A DNA stretch of 64,000 nucleotides, taken from Planctomycetota bacterium. GTDB taxonomy: Bacteria; Planctomycetota; GCA-002687715; DRQF01. The position numbers and the translations under genes are program-made. The stretch covers positions 96,001 through 160,000 of the forward strand of contig JAZGFI010000103.1 of the NCBI GenBank assembly GCA_036479435.1, given 5' to 3'. The notes under the pieces are model-generated. The model saw only the letters and a list, made by a program, of their open reading frames with translations, ran no database searches and had not been told where the DNA came from. Within the stretch, counting starts at the first letter, position 1. Each line of letters begins with the position of its first letter. Positions 30,040 to 54,532 of the stretch are shown here, one piece after another.

Positions 30040-30673
30040 GATGGCCCCAGCTCCTTCGAAGGCTGACCGCCGCTTGCTGCGGATCGGCGGCATCAAAAAT
30101 GAAACGCATGACCGCGAGCCCGGCCGCGCCAGTGCGCGCCACAGCTTCAGCGCGGCTATCGTCGACACCGCCGACAGCGACCACGGGACAAGTGACGTGC
30201 TCGCAAACCGATTCTAGTTCATCTAGGCCGCGCAGCGAAACCAGCCCTTTCTTCGAGGGAGTTTCAAACACCGGGCCGTAAATCAAAAAGTCAGCTCCGG
30301 CCTCGGCCCGTTTTTGAGCTTCGGCTGGGTTGTGAACGGAGACGCCAATGGGAAGGTTCGCGCCGTAACGTTTTTTGACTTCGGACAAGGGCGATGAGCG
30401 GAAACTGAGCTGCAAGGCGCAGGCTTCGATTTCGCCCAGTAGATGGTCGCGTTCGTTCAAAATGAAGCAGGCCCCGGCATCGACGACGACTTTGCGCAGC
30501 TCTTTTGCGCGGCGGATAAACACGTCATCCGCTAAGGACTTCTCGCGAAACACCACGGCGCTGACACCACCTTGAATCGCCTCCGCGACGGCCCTTGCGA
30601 GCTGAGTGAAGGAGATGTCGGCGCGATCCGGGGTGATCGCCAGTAGCTCCAAGGGTATCGTGAAGTTAGGCAT
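30029..30673 (-). CDS. thiE: Thiamine-phosphate synthase (ThiE/TenI family)
   Basis: FREKSL, FILNER, GVSVH, GPVFETPSK and VAVGGV motifs. Start at ATG 30673. Some canonical ThiE residues are altered, so TenI-like is possible. Confidence 0.78.
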   Translation of the reverse strand: MPNFTIPLELLAITPDRADISFTQLARAVAEAIQGGVSAVVFREKSLADDVFIRRAKELRKVVVDAGACFILNERDHLLGEIEACALQLSFRSSPLSEVKKRYGANLPIGVSVHNPAEAQKRAEAGADFLIYGPVFETPSKKGLVSLRGLDELESVCEHVTCPVVAVGGVDDSRAEAVARTGAAGLAVMRFIFDAADPQQAAVSLRRSWGHHGN

Positions 30674-31766
30674 GAGGACGGCGAGTTGAGACGCGGCGGT
30701 GCCCCATTTCAATCAAGCGATCAATGAGCCCCGAGAACCCGATGCCGGCGACCTTGGCGGCCAAGGGTGCCAAGGATTGTTTGGTGAGACCGGGAATTGT
30801 GTTGGTTTCTAGGATCAAAGGACCTCGTTCCTCGCACAGGATGAAGTCCGTTCGGGTGATGCCATCACAGCCAAGGCGCTCGTGAACTTCGAGGCTCATC
30901 GACTGGACCAAGTCACTGAGGGCGACATCGACGGGAGCCGGACAGATTTCTTGGGCGCCGCCGATCTCATACTTGGCGGCATGGTCGAACCAAGTCGCCG
31001 CCAGCGGGCGGATCTCGACCAAGGGAAGGATCTCAGGTTTTTCCGAATGAGCATCCTTCAACACCGCGCAAGTAAACTCCCGGCCGGGGATAAACTTCTC
31101 AGCCAAGACCGCATCACAGCTCGCGAACTGCGACGCTAAGGTTTCGCGCGCGGCCTCGGCATCGTGAACAATTTGAACGCCAACGCTCGACCCCGAGTCT
31201 TTGGTTTTCAGCACCAGGGGAAATCCTATGCGCTCCTGCAGAGCCGCGAGGACTTGCGCCGGCTCGTTGAGCCATTCGCAACGTCGAAAGGACAAAGAAT
31301 CCGCGCAAGGTAGTCCCGCATCGCGCAGGAATGCCTTGTAGAGAGTTTTGTCCAAAGCCAAGGCGCTGCATTCGGGGCCCGCCCCGGTGTAAGCCAAATC
31401 TGACCATTCGAAAAAGGCCTGAAGGCTGCCGTCTTCACCCGGATGTCCGTGCAAGGCGATGAAGACGATGGAGGTGCCCCGCTCTTTGAGGGTCTGCACG
31501 GCGTCCAAAGGAGACTGCGGAGCTTCGAAAGCATCGTCCGCGCCCGAAGCGGCAAACACGGGGTCCTCAATGAATCGTTTTTTGAGCTGAGCCGCCTCAT
31601 CAATGCTGGTGATCAGACGACCAATACGAAAATCGGCGCGTTCGTTGAGAAGGACCACTCGAACTTGTTGACCGCGCGCGACGAGATCGCCAACAACCTC
31701 GCAACCCGACAGCAATGAGACCGCCGATTCGCCGGAAGGCCCTCCCATAAGCACTGCCACTGTCAT
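30666..31766 (-). CDS. ddl: D-alanine--D-alanine ligase
   Basis: GGPSGE..VSLLSG, LHG.PGEDG, GSSVGV, EKFIPGREF and ETNTIPGLT motifs. Confidence 0.93.
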   Translation of the reverse strand: MTVAVLMGGPSGESAVSLLSGCEVVGDLVARGQQVRVVLLNERADFRIGRLITSIDEAAQLKKRFIEDPVFAASGADDAFEAPQSPLDAVQTLKERGTSIVFIALHGHPGEDGSLQAFFEWSDLAYTGAGPECSALALDKTLYKAFLRDAGLPCADSLSFRRCEWLNEPAQVLAALQERIGFPLVLKTKDSGSSVGVQIVHDAEAARETLASQFASCDAVLAEKFIPGREFTCAVLKDAHSEKPEILPLVEIRPLAATWFDHAAKYEIGGAQEICPAPVDVALSDLVQSMSLEVHERLGCDGITRTDFILCEERGPLILETNTIPGLTKQSLAPLAAKVAGIGFSGLIDRLIEMGHRRVSTRRPHA

Positions 31767-49133: not shown

Positions 49134-49937
49134 TTAGTTCGCAACATCGCCGCGCTTTTCGCGAGCGATGCGATCGTAGATTTCCGGTCGTCGGTCTTCC
49201 AGGAAGGAAAATCGCTGGCGGCAGGCGGCTACTGCCTTGCGGTCCGCTTCGCCACTCACGATGCCTTCGCTGCCGACCAAGGTCGACGCAACGTTTCCGA
49301 AAGGGTCGACGAGGGAGCTATCTCCCAAGTGAGCGATACCCCCGGCTTCTCCAATGCGATTGACGCCCAAAACGTAGGCTTGGTTCTCAATGGCGCGGGA
49401 CCTTAGCAGGGTCATCCAGGCTTCGCTACGCCGCTCAGGCCAATTTGCAATCACCACGAAGAGGTCGGTGTCATCAGCTGCGAATCGGAAAATCTCGGGG
49501 AACCTTAAGTCGTAGCAGACAAAAGGCGTCACTCGGAGTCCCTTTATTTCGATCGTCGAAACCGAGCGGCCAGCGTCGTAGTGCTCGGGCTCCCCGGCCA
49601 GCGAAAAGGGGTGGATTTTCTCATACCGCAGCTGCTCGGCACCGCTGGGATCGATGACGAGTGCGATGTTTTTGGGCCGTGGCTTCTGAGCGGCCGCAAG
49701 GCCTGCGATCAGCCACACGCCGGCCGCTTTCGCCGTGGACGACAAAAACTCGCGAATCTCGTCCTCAAAGGGAAGGATCTTGGCGGTGTCCATCGAAAAG
49801 GCGGTGGCGAACATCTCAGGCAAGACCACCAAGTCTGCCCCGGCGTCGGCGGCGCGCTCGATGAGTCCTCGAGCTACCTTAAGATTCGTGCCCGGGTTCT
49901 CCCAAGCGATGTCAAACTGAATTCCGGCAACTTTCAT
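49134..49937 (-). CDS. Nitrilase-family carbon-nitrogen hydrolase (omega-amidase/YafV-like)
   Basis: E-K-C triad motifs LPEMF, YEKIHPF and VCYDLRFPE, plus RAIENQ. Start at ATG 49937. Confidence 0.9.
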   Translation of the reverse strand: MKVAGIQFDIAWENPGTNLKVARGLIERAADAGADLVVLPEMFATAFSMDTAKILPFEDEIREFLSSTAKAAGVWLIAGLAAAQKPRPKNIALVIDPSGAEQLRYEKIHPFSLAGEPEHYDAGRSVSTIEIKGLRVTPFVCYDLRFPEIFRFAADDTDLFVVIANWPERRSEAWMTLLRSRAIENQAYVLGVNRIGEAGGIAHLGDSSLVDPFGNVASTLVGSEGIVSGEADRKAVAACRQRFSFLEDRRPEIYDRIAREKRGDVAN

Positions 49938-49996
49938 GGGCTCGAACTGTCCTTGATTCACGCGCAATTTTGACCGAATGCCGATACGATGTAGCC

Positions 49997-50830
49997 ATGC
50001 ACCCAGTCCTCGACGCCTACCTTAGATTCCTTCGCCGCGCTGGGCTTGAGTTTTCAATCGCCCCAGACCTCGTGCACGAAGACGATTTTACCGGGGACCT
50101 GCGACCATCGACAGCCAAGCGCCACCACGTCTTGAGCGATGGATTTCAACTCGTCGAAGCTCTCGACGCCTCGCAGTCCATAGGCGCGGATCACGCGAGT
50201 CTGTCGGTCAGCACCATCCTTGAACGACACGCGGTAGAGCTCAACGGTCGCCGCGTCGTCGATGTCGGCTGTGGTAGCGGTTTTTTGGCGCTCGTGGCCG
50301 CTCACCACGGGGCGCGCGCCAGTGGCACCGAGATAGACCCTAGGGCTCTTGAACTCGCCGCTACGAACGCCGCCGCCAACGATCTGCAGGTGGATTGGCT
50401 CCTCAGTTCACTGGTGGATTCGATTCCCACCCGTCCGCCGATTGACTGCTTTGTCGCCAACTTGCCCCACAAGCCCAGCGATATGGATTCAAGTGGCGAG
50501 TTACCTCTCGCGCAAGCCGGCGGCGAGGGTGGATGCGCCCTCTTTGAGAAGGCTTTCCCGGCGATGGCGGCAAGGCAAACGCCGGGGGGGCGGGTTGTCT
50601 TTTTCCTCCATTCGCTGCCAGATCCTAGACTCCTTTGTGGCGCGGCCAAGCTCTATGACCTCGTTCTTGAGAGTTGGAAGCTAAGATGGCTCGGGGTCTC
50701 AGAGTTTGAGACGAGTCGTGCCTTTTTTCGCGAGCGCGCGAAATCAGGGCGCTCACACCTCCACCGAGATTCGGCGCGCAACCTTGAAGCCTTGGTTTGC
50801 GGCGTGTGGGTCGGAACCAAGAAGAATTGA
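49997..50830 (+). CDS. Class I SAM-dependent methyltransferase (HemK/PrmC-like fold)
   Basis: VVDVGCGSG motif I, EIDP, NLPH in place of NPPY, and AGGEGG. Confidence 0.85.
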   Translation: MHPVLDAYLRFLRRAGLEFSIAPDLVHEDDFTGDLRPSTAKRHHVLSDGFQLVEALDASQSIGADHASLSVSTILERHAVELNGRRVVDVGCGSGFLALVAAHHGARASGTEIDPRALELAATNAAANDLQVDWLLSSLVDSIPTRPPIDCFVANLPHKPSDMDSSGELPLAQAGGEGGCALFEKAFPAMAARQTPGGRVVFFLHSLPDPRLLCGAAKLYDLVLESWKLRWLGVSEFETSRAFFRERAKSGRSHLHRDSARNLEALVCGVWVGTKKN

Positions 50831-51648
50831 TGACATCCCAAAAGGCCTGTCAACTTGTGGTCTCAGGCGATGACGGCGGCGCCGCCCCGGAAAGTGATGC
50901 CGCGCTTCTTCGCGCCTTTGACGAGGGTCCTTTGCGCAGCGTTTCCGTTTTGGCCAACGGGCTGACGACCGAACCCTTCGCGGCCAAAGCGCTGGCACGC
51001 AATTTGTCGGTAGGCCTCCACATCAACTTTTCTGAGGGCAAAGCCCTTGGCGGCCCGATCCTGGGGCTGACGAATGACCGCGCCGAGTTTCCCGGCCAAA
51101 AACAAGAGACCTGGCGGCGACTCGCCGAGGGGAAGATCTCTGAGGCGGCATTGGCGCGCGAGATCACGGCCCAATGGGAGGCTTTGGTCGCACTGGGACT
51201 CCGCCCCGACCACGTCGACGGCCACAATCACGTGCAGATGTTTCCAAAAGTCTTGAGCGCTATGACGCTTGCCCTGGGCCAAGAATCGATTTTTGTTCGA
51301 GTCCCCGATGAACCCGAATGCCCCCGGGACTTGGTGCCGGAGTTTCAGAGCCTATCCTTATCGTCGGCAGAGTTTCGTCGGCGTCTTGAAGGGACGGCGT
51401 GGCGTGCGAGCGACCATTTCGTCGGGTTTTGCTTCAGCCTAAACCCTCGCCAAGAAGCGCTCGCGCATCTTTTTCCCGCACGACCGGGTCTTACTGAATT
51501 CATGGTTCACCCGGGGGCACGCTGCGGATCGCAGTTCACCGAAAGCAGCCTTCGCGACCGAGAACTCAGAACTCTCCTTGACGAAACCATGACTCAAAGC
51601 TTTCAATCTGCGGGCTACCAACTCGTCTCCTTTCGCGAAGCTCAATGA
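50830..51648 (+). CDS. ChbG/HpnK/YdjC-family carbohydrate deacetylase
   Basis: GDDGG, SVSVLAN, GLHINFSEG, HVDGHNHV and EFMVHPG motifs. The ATG overlaps the upstream TGA. Confidence 0.88.
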   Translation: MTSQKACQLVVSGDDGGAAPESDAALLRAFDEGPLRSVSVLANGLTTEPFAAKALARNLSVGLHINFSEGKALGGPILGLTNDRAEFPGQKQETWRRLAEGKISEAALAREITAQWEALVALGLRPDHVDGHNHVQMFPKVLSAMTLALGQESIFVRVPDEPECPRDLVPEFQSLSLSSAEFRRRLEGTAWRASDHFVGFCFSLNPRQEALAHLFPARPGLTEFMVHPGARCGSQFTESSLRDRELRTLLDETMTQSFQSAGYQLVSFREAQ

Positions 51649-52661
51649 AAATTGGAATTGTGGAACCAGCCCTCGCCAGCCCGGCACGAGGGAACACCGT
51701 TAGCGTCAAGCGCTGGCGCACTTGCCTTGAGAGGCGCGGGAAGTCGGTGCGCGTACTGTCGCCCGACGAACTTTCGCTCAAAGACGCTCTTCAGGGCTTG
51801 GATGTGCTGCACGCCCATCACGCGATCCGGACCGGCCCTCACGCGGCCAAAGCGGCGGAGAAAGCGGGTATCCCCTGGGTGCTGAGCATCGGAGGCACAG
51901 ACCTCGCCCTGGACGAGAACGGCAAACTCGATCCCAGGGCCGCCGACTCATTTTCTTCGGCACAACTCGTGATGGGCCCGAATTGGGCGGACGCGGAACG
52001 CCTCAATGCCTTCCTCGACAGCGGGGTCGCTTTTCAACGAGTGCGACGCGGAGTTGTGGTTCCACCGCGTGCTCTAGGGGTTCGGCCCCATGGATTGCGC
52101 GGCCTTTTGGCCGGCGGCATACGCGAGGTCAAAGGCCAAGACATCGCCCTCGATTGGTTCGATGCGATGGACGCCAAGGACACCTGCCAGCAACTCAATC
52201 TCGAACTGTTATTCGCAGGTCCGGTGATCGAAGAGGACTACGCCACCACGTTCTCACGCCGCATTGAAAGACGCAATCGCCTCGCCTGGCTGGGCTCGGT
52301 CGAGGCCTCCAGAATGCCAAGGACTTTTGCCCGCTCTGATTTCCTTCTCAATAGTTCCCGGCTTGAGGGCGGCTCGAACGCAATCCTTGAGGCTTGGGCT
52401 CACGGTCGACCCGTCGTCGCGAAAAGATCTCCGGGCAATGTCGAGATGCTGGAATCGGCGCCACCTTCTATCGCCCATTTAGTCGCCGACAGACCTGAAG
52501 CCATGGATGCCCTTTTTGAGTGGCTGCAACGACTTGCCGCGGCGGACAGCAAAGAACGTCAACGCCGAGCCCGCCTCGCGCGCGACTACGTCTCCTTACA
52601 CCACGATTCCGAGGTCGAAACCGACGAATTACTTCGCGCCTACGAACGCGCGCGTTCTTGA
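51645..52661 (+). CDS. GT-B (family 4-like) glycosyltransferase resembling the selenosugar synthase SenB
   Basis: IVEPAL...GN..S..RW, HAIR, GGTDL, IREVK, SRLEGGSNAILEA and PGNVEML follow the SenB motif order as recalled. 4-bp overlap with the deacetylase. Confidence 0.8.
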   Translation: MKIGIVEPALASPARGNTVSVKRWRTCLERRGKSVRVLSPDELSLKDALQGLDVLHAHHAIRTGPHAAKAAEKAGIPWVLSIGGTDLALDENGKLDPRAADSFSSAQLVMGPNWADAERLNAFLDSGVAFQRVRRGVVVPPRALGVRPHGLRGLLAGGIREVKGQDIALDWFDAMDAKDTCQQLNLELLFAGPVIEEDYATTFSRRIERRNRLAWLGSVEASRMPRTFARSDFLLNSSRLEGGSNAILEAWAHGRPVVAKRSPGNVEMLESAPPSIAHLVADRPEAMDALFEWLQRLAAADSKERQRRARLARDYVSLHHDSEVETDELLRAYERARS

Positions 52662-52737: not shown

Positions 52738-53004
52738 TTGAAATCCCCTGAAAAAGTCACGTTGACGTTATCGCGCCTTGATCGTGTGCTACTCCAAGCT
52801 CACGGCTACCCTTTCTCAGAGGTTGAGGCTGAGCTTAGTGGCGTGCCCGCCACAGTAGACTTAGCCGAGCTTGCTTTTGAAAGATTCGATATCGAACAGA
52901 TGCTCGGCGACCTCGCGTGGTCGATCAACCACTGCAGCAACCGAGACTTGCAGGAACGACTGGATGAACTCTACGAGTGTATTGAGCTGGATTCATCTCG
53001 TTAG
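52738..53004 (+). CDS. Small acidic hypothetical protein
   Basis: 88-aa ORF filling the gap, same strand as its neighbours, TTG start. Confidence 0.5.
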   Translation: MKSPEKVTLTLSRLDRVLLQAHGYPFSEVEAELSGVPATVDLAELAFERFDIEQMLGDLAWSINHCSNRDLQERLDELYECIELDSSR

Positions 53005-53026
53005 GCACTAGACCGGACCCACGCGC

Positions 53027-54532
53027 ATGGCCACCAATCGCTATTGTGAAAAACTTGGTATCAAGGTCCCTCGACTAGAGGAGGTCATCGGCCATCGCGA
53101 GGCCAACATCTTTTCACTCATGATGGTGACTTTGATGGAGCGAGGGCATTCCATGTCGCTCGATCAAATTGCAGAGCGCTTCGAAGAAGTTGGGTTTAGG
53201 CCAAGGGCCCAGGCCCTTGCATCTCTCAAGCGTTGTCGCCCCAATCGCGATCCCATCTTTCGCGACGGCGATCTGTACGCGCTCGACCCCAACAGCCACG
53301 AGGCTGACCTGTGGGCTTTTCGCCTCGGGCTGAGGCCGCCGCGAGCCGTGCTAAAGCTCGTCAGAGAGCCGGATTCGCCACTACCCAATTCCGACACGGC
53401 TCTAGGCATGGACGAGTTGAAAGAGTGCTGGACCGCGATCAGCCTTTGTAACGGTTGGTCAACCAGACGGATTATCCTCGCGGTACTCGACGCAAGACAG
53501 GCCCCGATGCTTCCGGCGGAGATTAGCGCTTGCGTCGCCAGCTGGACTTCCCATTTTCGCCTCGGGTTCGAAGATGCTCATTTCGAGCGTCGCGGTTCTC
53601 CCATTCATGAAGCTGAAGATGGGCGCCTCGAGGTTTCAGACCCAACGGCTCTCATCCCCGTCCGGTTGGCAGTTCGAGCCCGCATCAAAAAGATGCGGGC
53701 CTTCCATCCTCGCCGCAATGATGAAGCTCACTATCGAGTCCAGGCCGAAATCGCCAAGAAACGCCAAGAGCGTGAAATCGATGAACTAGCTTCGCTTCGG
53801 CGCGTCTTTCTTCATGCCTACCCAATGAAGAATCCAGAAATCGCGATACTCATCGACGCGACAAACCCCACCATCAGATCTTTCCTAGCTTCGGATTTCG
53901 CAAGCCTTCGCTCCGCGTTGTCTGGCTATGATTTAATCGCTGCGGTCAAAGTTCGCGAAACACTAAGCAAACTCGGGTTTGATTTTCAGGACAAAAGGCT
54001 GTCCGAACTCAGTCCACCGCAAAAATCGATGGTGGTGGGAACTCGTGGGCACATCCTAAAGATAACACTGGAGATGCTCATTCAATCGTCTTGCCGCATC
54101 CGCCGGCCTCTTAGTGACCCCAAGAAGTTGAAAGAGCATCTAGGTAAGAGGCAGCTTGACCAGCTCCTGCGCCGCCTTGAATCCGACGCTAAGTCCATTT
54201 TTTCCTATTTTCAGTATGGCCGTCTCCACGGGGTCGTCTTGGTTCGCAAAGGCGCCGTCAACGAAAGTCTGCTGGCACCTTGGCGTCACTTTCTCGAGCC
54301 CCATTTCCATCACCTAAAAAAACAAGCCTACGACGCGGGGCGACCCCTTGAGGTGGTTTTTGAAACACCCGCATGGGACAAACCTTGGGCCAGCGCGCAG
54401 CTTGTCGCCGTCGACAAGATGGATATGCGAGGAGACTCGTATTGGCTTATCGACCAAGACTGGACCATCGTTGATGAATCCGAGATCCAAGCCGCACGTA
54501 TCACCCCTGAGACGGACCAGCCATGCAGATAG
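53027..54532 (+). CDS. Hypothetical protein, possible N-terminal winged-helix domains
   Basis: 501-aa ORF with 'MSLDQIAERF...LASLKRC' and 'ILAVLDARQAPMLPAEIS' helix-turn-helix-like segments. No enzyme motif recognised. Confidence 0.7.
   Translation: MATNRYCEKLGIKVPRLEEVIGHREANIFSLMMVTLMERGHSMSLDQIAERFEEVGFRPRAQALASLKRCRPNRDPIFRDGDLYALDPNSHEADLWAFRLGLRPPRAVLKLVREPDSPLPNSDTALGMDELKECWTAISLCNGWSTRRIILAVLDARQAPMLPAEISACVASWTSHFRLGFEDAHFERRGSPIHEAEDGRLEVSDPTALIPVRLAVRARIKKMRAFHPRRNDEAHYRVQAEIAKKRQEREIDELASLRRVFLHAYPMKNPEIAILIDATNPTIRSFLASDFASLRSALSGYDLIAAVKVRETLSKLGFDFQDKRLSELSPPQKSMVVGTRGHILKITLEMLIQSSCRIRRPLSDPKKLKEHLGKRQLDQLLRRLESDAKSIFSYFQYGRLHGVVLVRKGAVNESLLAPWRHFLEPHFHHLKKQAYDAGRPLEVVFETPAWDKPWASAQLVAVDKMDMRGDSYWLIDQDWTIVDESEIQAARITPETDQPCR

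Follow-up and report, generated by a model that had tools for sequence, protein, structure and literature searches.

What does an operon make when it couples a relative of the selenosugar synthase SenB to a deacetylase and a methyltransferase? The question arises from three adjacent genes at 49997..52661 of a 64,000-nucleotide stretch of DNA from a Planctomycetota bacterium (contig JAZGFI010000103.1 of assembly GCA_036479435.1, positions 96,001 to 160,000 of the forward strand), referred to here as the window. A first-pass annotation, made from the sequence alone, had read these genes as a candidate new (methyl)selenosugar pathway. Our analysis demonstrated that the cassette is real, conserved and undescribed, and that it is built on a relative of SenB. 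We tentatively propose, at somewhat short of an even chance, that the operon encodes three successive tailoring steps, which would yield a small N-methylated selenosugar independently of the selenoneine pathway; that the product as a whole contains selenium, N-methyl and Se-methyl variants taken together, we consider somewhat probable. The three genes are as follows:

49997..50830, + strand: class I S-adenosylmethionine (SAM) methyltransferase (MT), 277 amino acids; Pfam class I SAM methyltransferase
50830..51648, + strand: YdjC/ChbG-family metal-dependent de-N-acetylase (YdjC), 272 amino acids; Pfam YdjC
51645..52661, + strand: GT-B (GT4-like) glycosyltransferase (GT), 338 amino acids, candidate selenophosphate:UDP-HexNAc (uridine diphosphate-N-acetylhexosamine) Se-glycosyltransferase; Pfam GT4/GT-B

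The genes are intact and, as first reported, translationally coupled: a check of the open reading frames (ORFs) placed a TGATG overlap at the MT/YdjC junction (TGA 50828-50830, ATG 50830-50832) and an ATGA overlap at the YdjC/GT junction (51645-51648). The GT motifs quoted in that annotation were all present in the translation (PALASPARGNTVSVKRW, HAIR, GGTDL, REVK, EGGSNAILEA and PGNVEML). A public contig covers the region without any difference, although it may itself be where the window DNA came from.

The Glycosyltransferase and Its Relationship to SenB

The first-pass annotation had matched the GT to SenB, the selenosugar synthase of the senABC selenoneine pathway (TIGR04348; PDB 8JJN, 8JJT, 8JJQ, 8FBX, 8RZ3 and 8K5U). 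This identification held in part: the GT is SenB-like, with a GT-B fold and the selenophosphate pocket kept, but it scores below the SenB cut-off and lies outside the SenB clade. Judged by sequence, it belongs to a larger, uncharacterised family that contains SenB. Only four Protein Data Bank sequences matched the GT at E<=0.001, all of them SenB (E 4-5e-13), and SenB was also the top Foldseek match (TM-score 0.78) of its AlphaFold model (predicted local distance difference test, pLDDT, 94). None of the NCBIfam cut-offs was reached: TIGR04348 gave 90 bits against 300 (for comparison, 417 bits for P0016 and 337 for L042, two true SenB proteins run as controls), the BshA model gave 27.6 against 273.7, and NF038229, annotated as 'GPMC system family 4 glycosyltransferase', gave 162.4 against 400. 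NF038229 was nevertheless the best-scoring model for the GT and for 41 of the 43 proteins scanned, the other two being true SenB.

The relationship was resolved by two trees, built with FastTree from 128 rows and with IQ-TREE from 55 of those rows, one long branch being left out. In both, the SenB clade (100% SH-aLRT, an approximate likelihood-ratio support) excluded the window GT, yet SenB was nested inside the larger family of the window GT. SenB and that family shared a 99-100% branch that excluded BshA and 10-11 other GT4 rows, and the GT stood on a separate branch from the BshA proteins L239/L240. The first-pass annotation had offered clustering outside the SenB clade, together with failure to form a Se- or S-glycoside, as what would speak against its reading; the first half is what the trees gave, although the common larger family preserves the connection.

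SenB contacts selenophosphate through N20, H58, R61, T83, T85 and R155 (PMC10891094, PMC10702425), and K158 is described as the critical residue that cleaves the Se-P bond (PMC10891094). The window GT keeps SenB N20, H58, R61, T85, D86, R155, V157, K158, E231 and E239 (its own pocket numbering being N17, H59, R62, T85, D86, R160, K163, E241 and E249), so that six of the seven pocket positions N20/H58/R61/T83/T85/R155/K158 are identical and T83 is Gly. Of the sugar-donor residues N20, T23 and E231, the Asn and Glu are kept and T23 is Ser. The SenB motif EGGAHV reads EGGSNA; Asn at the His position was also found in 13 of 16 SenB-clade rows. Among 99 non-SenB rows of the family, the pocket was widely retained (N20 in 89, H58 in 88, R/K/H at position 61 in 94, T85 in 85, R155 in 98, K158 in 98). 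In the 13 generic GT4 rows, N20 and H58 were not among the top residues and R155 occurred in four; K158 occurred in all 13 and is therefore not diagnostic, and E231/E239 are likewise shared by GT4 enzymes generally. At the T83 position BshA has a His, which lies before the GTD motif and serves its retaining mechanism; the window GT has Gly. The His/Asp/Lys residues that had been called catalytic in SenB are thus present, but His58-Asp86 is reported not to act as a catalytic dyad (PMC10891094), and the Lys, although critical, is general to GT4.

Several observations weigh against a SenB-like activity. Identity to SenB is only 24%; the window GT, like most of the 22 rows closest to it, has Gly for T83 and Arg for Q131; and SenB, BshA and MshA were tied in a second structure aligner (Z 32.4, 32.2 and 31.9), so the fold alone says little. 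The outgroup also comprised no more than 12-13 rows, and the profile used to collect the family rows was itself derived from relatives of the window GT. Some of these features also fit a different acceptor. The SenB pocket binds phosphate and has been likened to the MshA site for a phosphorylated co-substrate (PMC10702425), and the GT might thus glycosylate a phosphate-bearing or anionic substrate to give an O-glycoside and a bacillithiol- or mycothiol-like metabolite, with SenB as the sole branch that switched to selenophosphate. The fold tie, the T83G and Q131R changes and the nesting of SenB, whose activity may be derived, are consistent with such an acceptor, under which the genomic link to selD described below would reflect lineage lifestyle. 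We regard this explanation as possible, though doubtful.

Distribution and Modular Composition of the Cassette

A profile search detected the GT family (SenB clade included) in 79 of 401 Planctomycetota genomes (at most five candidates being scored in each, so that misses are possible), 26 of 251 Desulfobacterota genomes and 6 of 231 Acidobacteriota genomes. SenB-clade genes accounted for nine of the 79; the non-SenB type thus occurred in 70 of the 401 Planctomycetota genomes, about a sixth, with two partial genes counted as non-SenB without a tree. All eight other genomes of the host's family carried the GT. Neighbouring genes were mapped in 104 loci, one per genome, with the window itself excluded; the set also leaves out G508, duplicates, nine loci of the SenB clade and, for a gene split in two, its second half. 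Cassette genes were counted by six-frame profile searches, a composition-based gene caller having missed genes in high-GC loci.

Of the 104 loci, 63 had YdjC adjacent to the GT, 36 had the MT, and 18 had a Ddl-like ATP-grasp ligase that carries a CxC motif near its N-terminus. YdjC was present at 35 of the 36 MT loci and at all 18 ligase loci, whereas the 41 loci without YdjC (seven of them cut by contig ends) held the MT once and the ligase never. The single exception, G059, had the MT beside the GT and a YdjC homologue elsewhere in the genome. The MT-YdjC-GT order recurred in other genera, in other families and in a second phylum, and thus reflects more than chance; the recurrence that the first-pass annotation had proposed to survey was accordingly found across Planctomycetota and Desulfobacterota. 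In the latter the usual order was ligase, MT, YdjC, GT (12 loci). A natural GT-MT fusion, P0110, whose MT belongs to the same family as the window MT and whose GT part matches a locus with YdjC upstream (L145), supports a single pathway. At L259, a PIG-L/BshB-like de-N-acetylase lies 3' of the GT in place of YdjC. From this deacetylase and the 63 YdjC-adjacent loci, the GT substrate is predicted to be an N-acetyl sugar. No other neighbour beside the GT recurred across families in the mapped loci. The host genome yielded no CxC ligase, the best match scoring 68 bits (window 30666-31766) against at least 123 for full-length cassette ligases. A metagenome scan with the MT alignment returned eight short loci, four of which had YdjC directly downstream on contigs that ended before any GT.

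NF038229 represents a related but distinct branch. Its true member L217 (459 bits) falls within the same larger GT family, but has neither YdjC nor MT alongside; an MBL-fold (metallo-beta-lactamase) hydrolase lies upstream on the other strand. We found no characterised activity for NF038229.

Three further arrangements were observed. Five loci (L216:5333-7006, - strand; L218, L226, L227 and L229) encode an undescribed ligase-MT fusion of ~555 amino acids, in which a CxC Ddl-like ATP-grasp domain is joined to a HemK-like MT; the two were fused in these five full-length Desulfobacterota proteins scanned and separate in L234. In family f82 (L141, L144, L147, L153, L157 and L158), the YdjC-GT pair seems, by eye in the translated frames, to be divergent from a xanthine-dehydrogenase-like operon upstream of YdjC. 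L228:3738-6798 (- strand) is possibly another tailoring variant: behind a near-GPMC-type GT come an O-methyltransferase/DUF2284 fusion, with weak matches to two selenoprotein families, and a B12 radical SAM gene.

The Deacetylase and the Methyltransferase

The YdjC protein exceeded the Pfam cut-off of its family (PF04794, 134.9 bits against 29.7). Aligned with ChbG (PDB 7VI8; E 1.3e-10), its D14, D15, H64 and H132 correspond to ChbG D10, D11, H61 and H125, and H227 and R242 were matched to ChbG H206 and R223 solely by their place in the motifs; each of the six residues was invariant in 10 homologues. With residue roles taken from the ChbG study (PMC9402603), the active site, comprising the metal triad and the general base and acid, is intact. 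The cassette YdjC thus shares a fold family and metal and catalytic residues with ChbG and HpnK, but scores below both equivalog cut-offs (79 against 227 bits for ChbG; 80.3 against 232.6 for HpnK, TIGR03473) and has no chb or hpn neighbours.

An HpnK-like role, in which the cassette would glycosylate, deacetylate and methylate hopanoid or other lipid head groups, had been named by the first-pass annotation as an alternative to its own reading. It is suggested by HpnK being the best NCBIfam match of YdjC, by this YdjC being the only one found in the host genome, and by the squalene-hopene cyclase of the host genome and family. The cyclase search, like that for senA below, covered the 79 GT-bearing Planctomycetota genomes. 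It detected the cyclase in only 17 of them, including the host, where a different contig holds it next to an HpnG-like gene, and found none in nine triplet-bearing genomes (G046, G119, G132, G136, G167, G276, G331, G365 and G374). Moreover, HpnI is a GT2 enzyme. With YdjC far under the HpnK cut-off, we consider a lipid head-group role extremely unlikely.

In the MT (METHYLTRANSFERASE, the product of 49997..50830), motif I reads GCGSG and strand beta-4 is followed by N-L-P-H, whose N155 and P157 were invariant in 10 aligned homologues. HemK-like amino-methyltransferases carry a (D/N/S)-P-P-(Y/F/W)-type motif at this place, of which N-L-P-H would be a degenerate form. Pfam matched the MT to PrmA/MTS, and the NCBIfam matches were HemK2-like, with all NCBIfam scores below cut-off (PrmA 38.6 against 183 bits, PrmC 50.1 against 199, HemK2 50 against 87). 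A better PrmA candidate is present elsewhere in the host genome (122 bits, against 39 for the MT). The closest solved proteins by profile, at 19-23% identity, were PrmA, GenN (the gentamicin N-3'' methyltransferase; E 2e-17), N6AMT1/HemK2 and the apramycin N-methyltransferase; the N-S-P-T of GenN, an amino-sugar enzyme, aligns to the N-L-P-H of the MT, and GenN and N6AMT1 also led the fold matches of the MT model (pLDDT 91). These comparisons place the MT in a HemK/PrmA/GenN-like group and predict a small-molecule MT, for which N-methylation of an amine is likelier than a Se-methyl cap, because its closest solved relatives are N-methyltransferases and because it lies beside YdjC in 35 of 36 loci.

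For the same reasons, deacetylation and then N-methylation is a likelier course than the one first proposed, from Se-HexNAc through MeSe-HexNAc to MeSe-hexosamine. If the MT instead methylated the selenium of the same Se-glycoside, the products would be methylseleno-HexNAc and methylseleno-hexosamine, inert storage or excretion forms. The animal precedent that had been invoked for such products is real, 1-beta-methylseleno-N-acetylgalactosamine being the major urinary selenosugar in rats (PMC12623734). A Se-methyl cap shares all of the selenium evidence presented below, and three observations that count against N-methylation favour it or are compatible with it: the S-methyltransferase MmtN shares the MT fold (rank 40 among the fold matches), the ligase-fused Desulfobacterota MT clade reads T-P-P-Q instead of N-x-P-x, and the ligase and MT occur together in 12 Desulfobacterota loci, where they cannot both simply use the same amine. 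From this coexistence it follows that the MT must act either on the amine of the added residue, as NmbA does, or on selenium, and a Se-methyl cap would involve no competition for the amine. The MT of G059, beside a GT without YdjC, also fits it. On the other hand, capping of selenium needs no deacetylase, yet YdjC is present in 35 of 36 MT loci and elsewhere in the G059 genome; N-methyltransferases head both the sequence and the fold matches; and the MT family has no Pfam or NCBIfam match to TPMT or TehB, which are Se/thiol methyltransferases. We therefore judged the Se-methyl cap to be fairly unlikely.

Association of the Cassette with Selenium Metabolism

In the host genome (92% complete), contig C117 carries selA and tRNA-Sec (selenocysteine, Sec) together with a selD gene that contains an in-frame TGA, and selB is on C237; none of these genes, selD included, lies beside the cassette. 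The co-occurrence of the triplet with selD, which the first-pass annotation had suggested as a check, proved to be tight in Planctomycetota genomes, if confounded by kinship. Of the 401 genomes, 295 had selD; the GT was present in 78 of these and in only 1 of the 106 without it, so that selD accompanied the GT in 78 of 79 GT-bearing genomes. For the non-SenB type, selD was found in 69 of 70 genomes against 217 of 322 without a GT match (Fisher p 1e-9), the GT-selD genomes being spread over 24 families; since kin are not independent, this p-value overstates the link. Similarly, genomes were searched for 61 of the YdjC-adjacent loci, and 59 of these had selD. Both window-type members among the six GT-family matches of Acidobacteriota occurred with selD, too few for a contrast. 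In one genome (G430), YdjC, GT and selD are consecutive and in the same orientation, the GT and selD matches lying 126 bases apart.

This link has to be weighed against several findings. In the host's order, selD was present in 22 of 23 genomes regardless of the GT; in Desulfobacterota it was near universal (25 of 26 genomes with the GT, 211 of 225 without; p=1) and offered no contrast; and it adjoined the GT in only one of the loci examined. Moreover, no selD, selA or selB was found in G192 and G434, both of which carry the GT. The G434 GT lies near the GPMC type, with no YdjC at its locus. In G192, YdjC is broken by a TGA; the Sec-competent relative G285 has a TGA at this codon too, and the G192 protein would be cut short if Sec machinery is lacking. 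A phosphate-bearing or anionic acceptor without selenium would account for these two genomes. The interrupted YdjC of G192 tells against such an acceptor, however, as do the nearly complete absence of the GT from selD-negative Planctomycetota (the non-SenB type being spread over 24 families), the YdjC-GT-selD order of G430, the in-frame TGA of a G223 ligase described below, and the lack of any kinase, phosphatase or acceptor-making gene recurring beside the GT across families.

A sulfur analogue was also considered, in which the GT would take thiophosphate or sulfide and the cassette would make thiosugars. SenB accepts thiophosphate with a 10-20-fold discrimination (PMC10702425), and T83G may alter selectivity. 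However, SenC/SelD gave no thiophosphate from sulfide in the published assay (10.1101/2022.04.13.486033), no sulfur-transfer gene recurred beside the GT, and the GT tracks selD. Thus, thiosugars appear very unlikely to be the products.

In-frame TGA codons were observed within the cassette itself. The ligase of G223 (L143:7922-8878, - strand), whose genome has selA and selD, reads C-L-TGA, with the TGA at the second Cys of the CxC that was kept in 15 of 15 other copies; a hairpin lies 3' of the TGA, and the gene is a candidate for a new selenoprotein family (Ddl-like ATP-grasp, CxU), seen in one genome. At non-conserved positions, two YdjC and two GT genes had an in-frame TGA (L148:5164-6045, + strand; L161:7115-7963, - strand; L047:4363-5334, - strand; L127:71-1087, + strand), the two YdjC codons being the same in two genera of family f81. 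The internal stops in 237 cassette gene matches numbered five and were all TGA; Sec-gated translation is possible, with no Cys counterpart. A simple test for a selenocysteine insertion sequence was weak, passing four of the five in-frame TGAs and also 530 of 1422 random positions, so hairpins were not counted as evidence. TGA or TAG codons in five GT matches of family f46 were rejected as internal stops, since they lay at the match end.

Separation from Selenoneine Synthesis and a Proposed Route

The absence of senA noted in the first-pass annotation was borne out: no senA/egtB was found in the host genome (best tblastn match E 3e-7, partial), and a split selenoneine pathway there was rejected on that basis. 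SenA/EgtB-like genes occurred in 12 of the 79 GT-bearing genomes. The accompanying idea that senA had been replaced by the MT and deacetylase is misleading. Four genomes (G100, G119, G128 and G159) hold a window-type GT, a near-cut-off senA and a second gene with 270-329 bits on TIGR04348, which adjoins the senA-like gene in three of the four; G119 has a senA-senB pair together with the full MT-YdjC-GT triplet. The coexistence of true senB with the window-type GT indicates that the cassette route is separate from selenoneine synthesis. It also suggests different jobs for the two enzymes, which is compatible with an acceptor other than selenophosphate as well. Apart from these, SenB-clade genes were observed in eight Planctomycetota genomes (L173-L175 and L177-L180 of family f51; L181) with no senA/egtB at E<=1e-40; in family f51 the gene lies 3' of an LpxA-like acyltransferase.

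We propose the following route. By analogy with SenB, the GT would join SelD-made selenophosphate to UDP-N-acetylglucosamine (or UDP-N-acetylgalactosamine) with release of phosphate, giving 1-seleno-beta-HexNAc. YdjC, with its intact active site, would then remove the N-acetyl group to give 1-seleno-hexosamine, and the SAM-dependent MT would methylate the freed C2 amine, giving N-methyl-1-seleno-hexosamine with a free selenol, which could serve as a low-molecular-weight selenol or a selenium store. In relatives, the Ddl-like ATP-grasp ligase would acylate the amine and extend the same core. Since the MT and ligase occur almost only at loci that also have the deacetylase, they seem to act on the amine that it frees, in the manner of bacillithiol and N-methyl-bacillithiol synthesis.

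The logic of the cassette closely resembles that of these thiols. Bacillithiol and mycothiol synthesis (BshA-BshB-BshC; MshA-MshB-MshC) proceeds by GT4-type N-acetylglucosamine transfer, de-N-acetylation and then amine acylation, and the same succession of GT, deacetylase and amine modifier is apparent here, with a BshB-like deacetylase replacing YdjC in L259. The systems differ in that the cassette GT lacks BshA's His before GTD, the deacetylase has a YdjC fold, the optional ligase is a Ddl-like ATP-grasp enzyme, and the chalcogen would come via the GT and not from cysteine. N-methylation in N-methyl-bacillithiol synthesis is carried out by NmbA (PMC6336425).

A broader scheme can be drawn, to which we give well under an even chance. 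SenB would be one offshoot of a much larger selenium-GT family. The main body of that family would feed a bacillithiol-like pathway composed of modules (GT and deacetylase, followed by an N-methyltransferase, a CxC/CxU ATP-grasp ligase or both). In Planctomycetota and Desulfobacterota its products would be dedicated low-molecular-weight selenols, the N-methyl- and N-aminoacyl-1-seleno-glucosamines, and selenocysteine codons would gate some of its enzymes.

In agreement with the first-pass annotation, we found no description of the cassette in the literature searched, mainly the main texts of open-access papers. The main text of one preprint (10.1101/2022.04.13.486033) contains neither 'methyltransferase' nor 'deacetylase', and PMC13674229 deals with ATP-grasp enzymes beside sulfoxide synthases. 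SenB is the only characterised selenium glycosyltransferase in the literature consulted, and its product is there only an intermediate to selenohistidines. If a selenosugar were the end product here, the cassette would represent a further bacterial route putting selenium into small molecules, present in about one sixth of the Planctomycetota genomes sampled, as well as in Desulfobacterota; an unassigned GT family, a YdjC subfamily and the CxC/CxU ATP-grasp family would each gain a function, and enzymes for making modified selenosugars would become available. Even with a non-selenium acceptor, the cassette points to an amino-sugar metabolite not yet described and shows from what kind of enzyme SenB arose.

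Genes Flanking the Operon

One further gene adjoins the operon on its 5' side:

49134..49937, - strand: nitrilase-family amidohydrolase, divergent flank, outside the pathway; Pfam CN_hydrolase 129.9 bits

Only ~60 bases (window 49937-49997) separate the divergent nitrilase and MT starts. A promoter scan gave nothing above chance. The nitrilase was found near the cassette in five loci of the host's own family and one other, and was absent from the remaining loci. In family relatives, a gene of ~385 amino acids, aminotransferase-like by eye, lies between the nitrilase and the MT; it is missing in the window. The nitrilase, the aminotransferase-like gene and MiaE were rejected as pathway parts, their association being family-level synteny only. 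Directly 3' of the GT (window 52738-54532, + strand) are ORFs of 88 and 501 amino acids without a Pfam or NCBIfam match. The longer one has a lower GC content (55% against 59-61%); since no homologue of either ORF recurs beside the GT in relatives, the pair may be an insertion.

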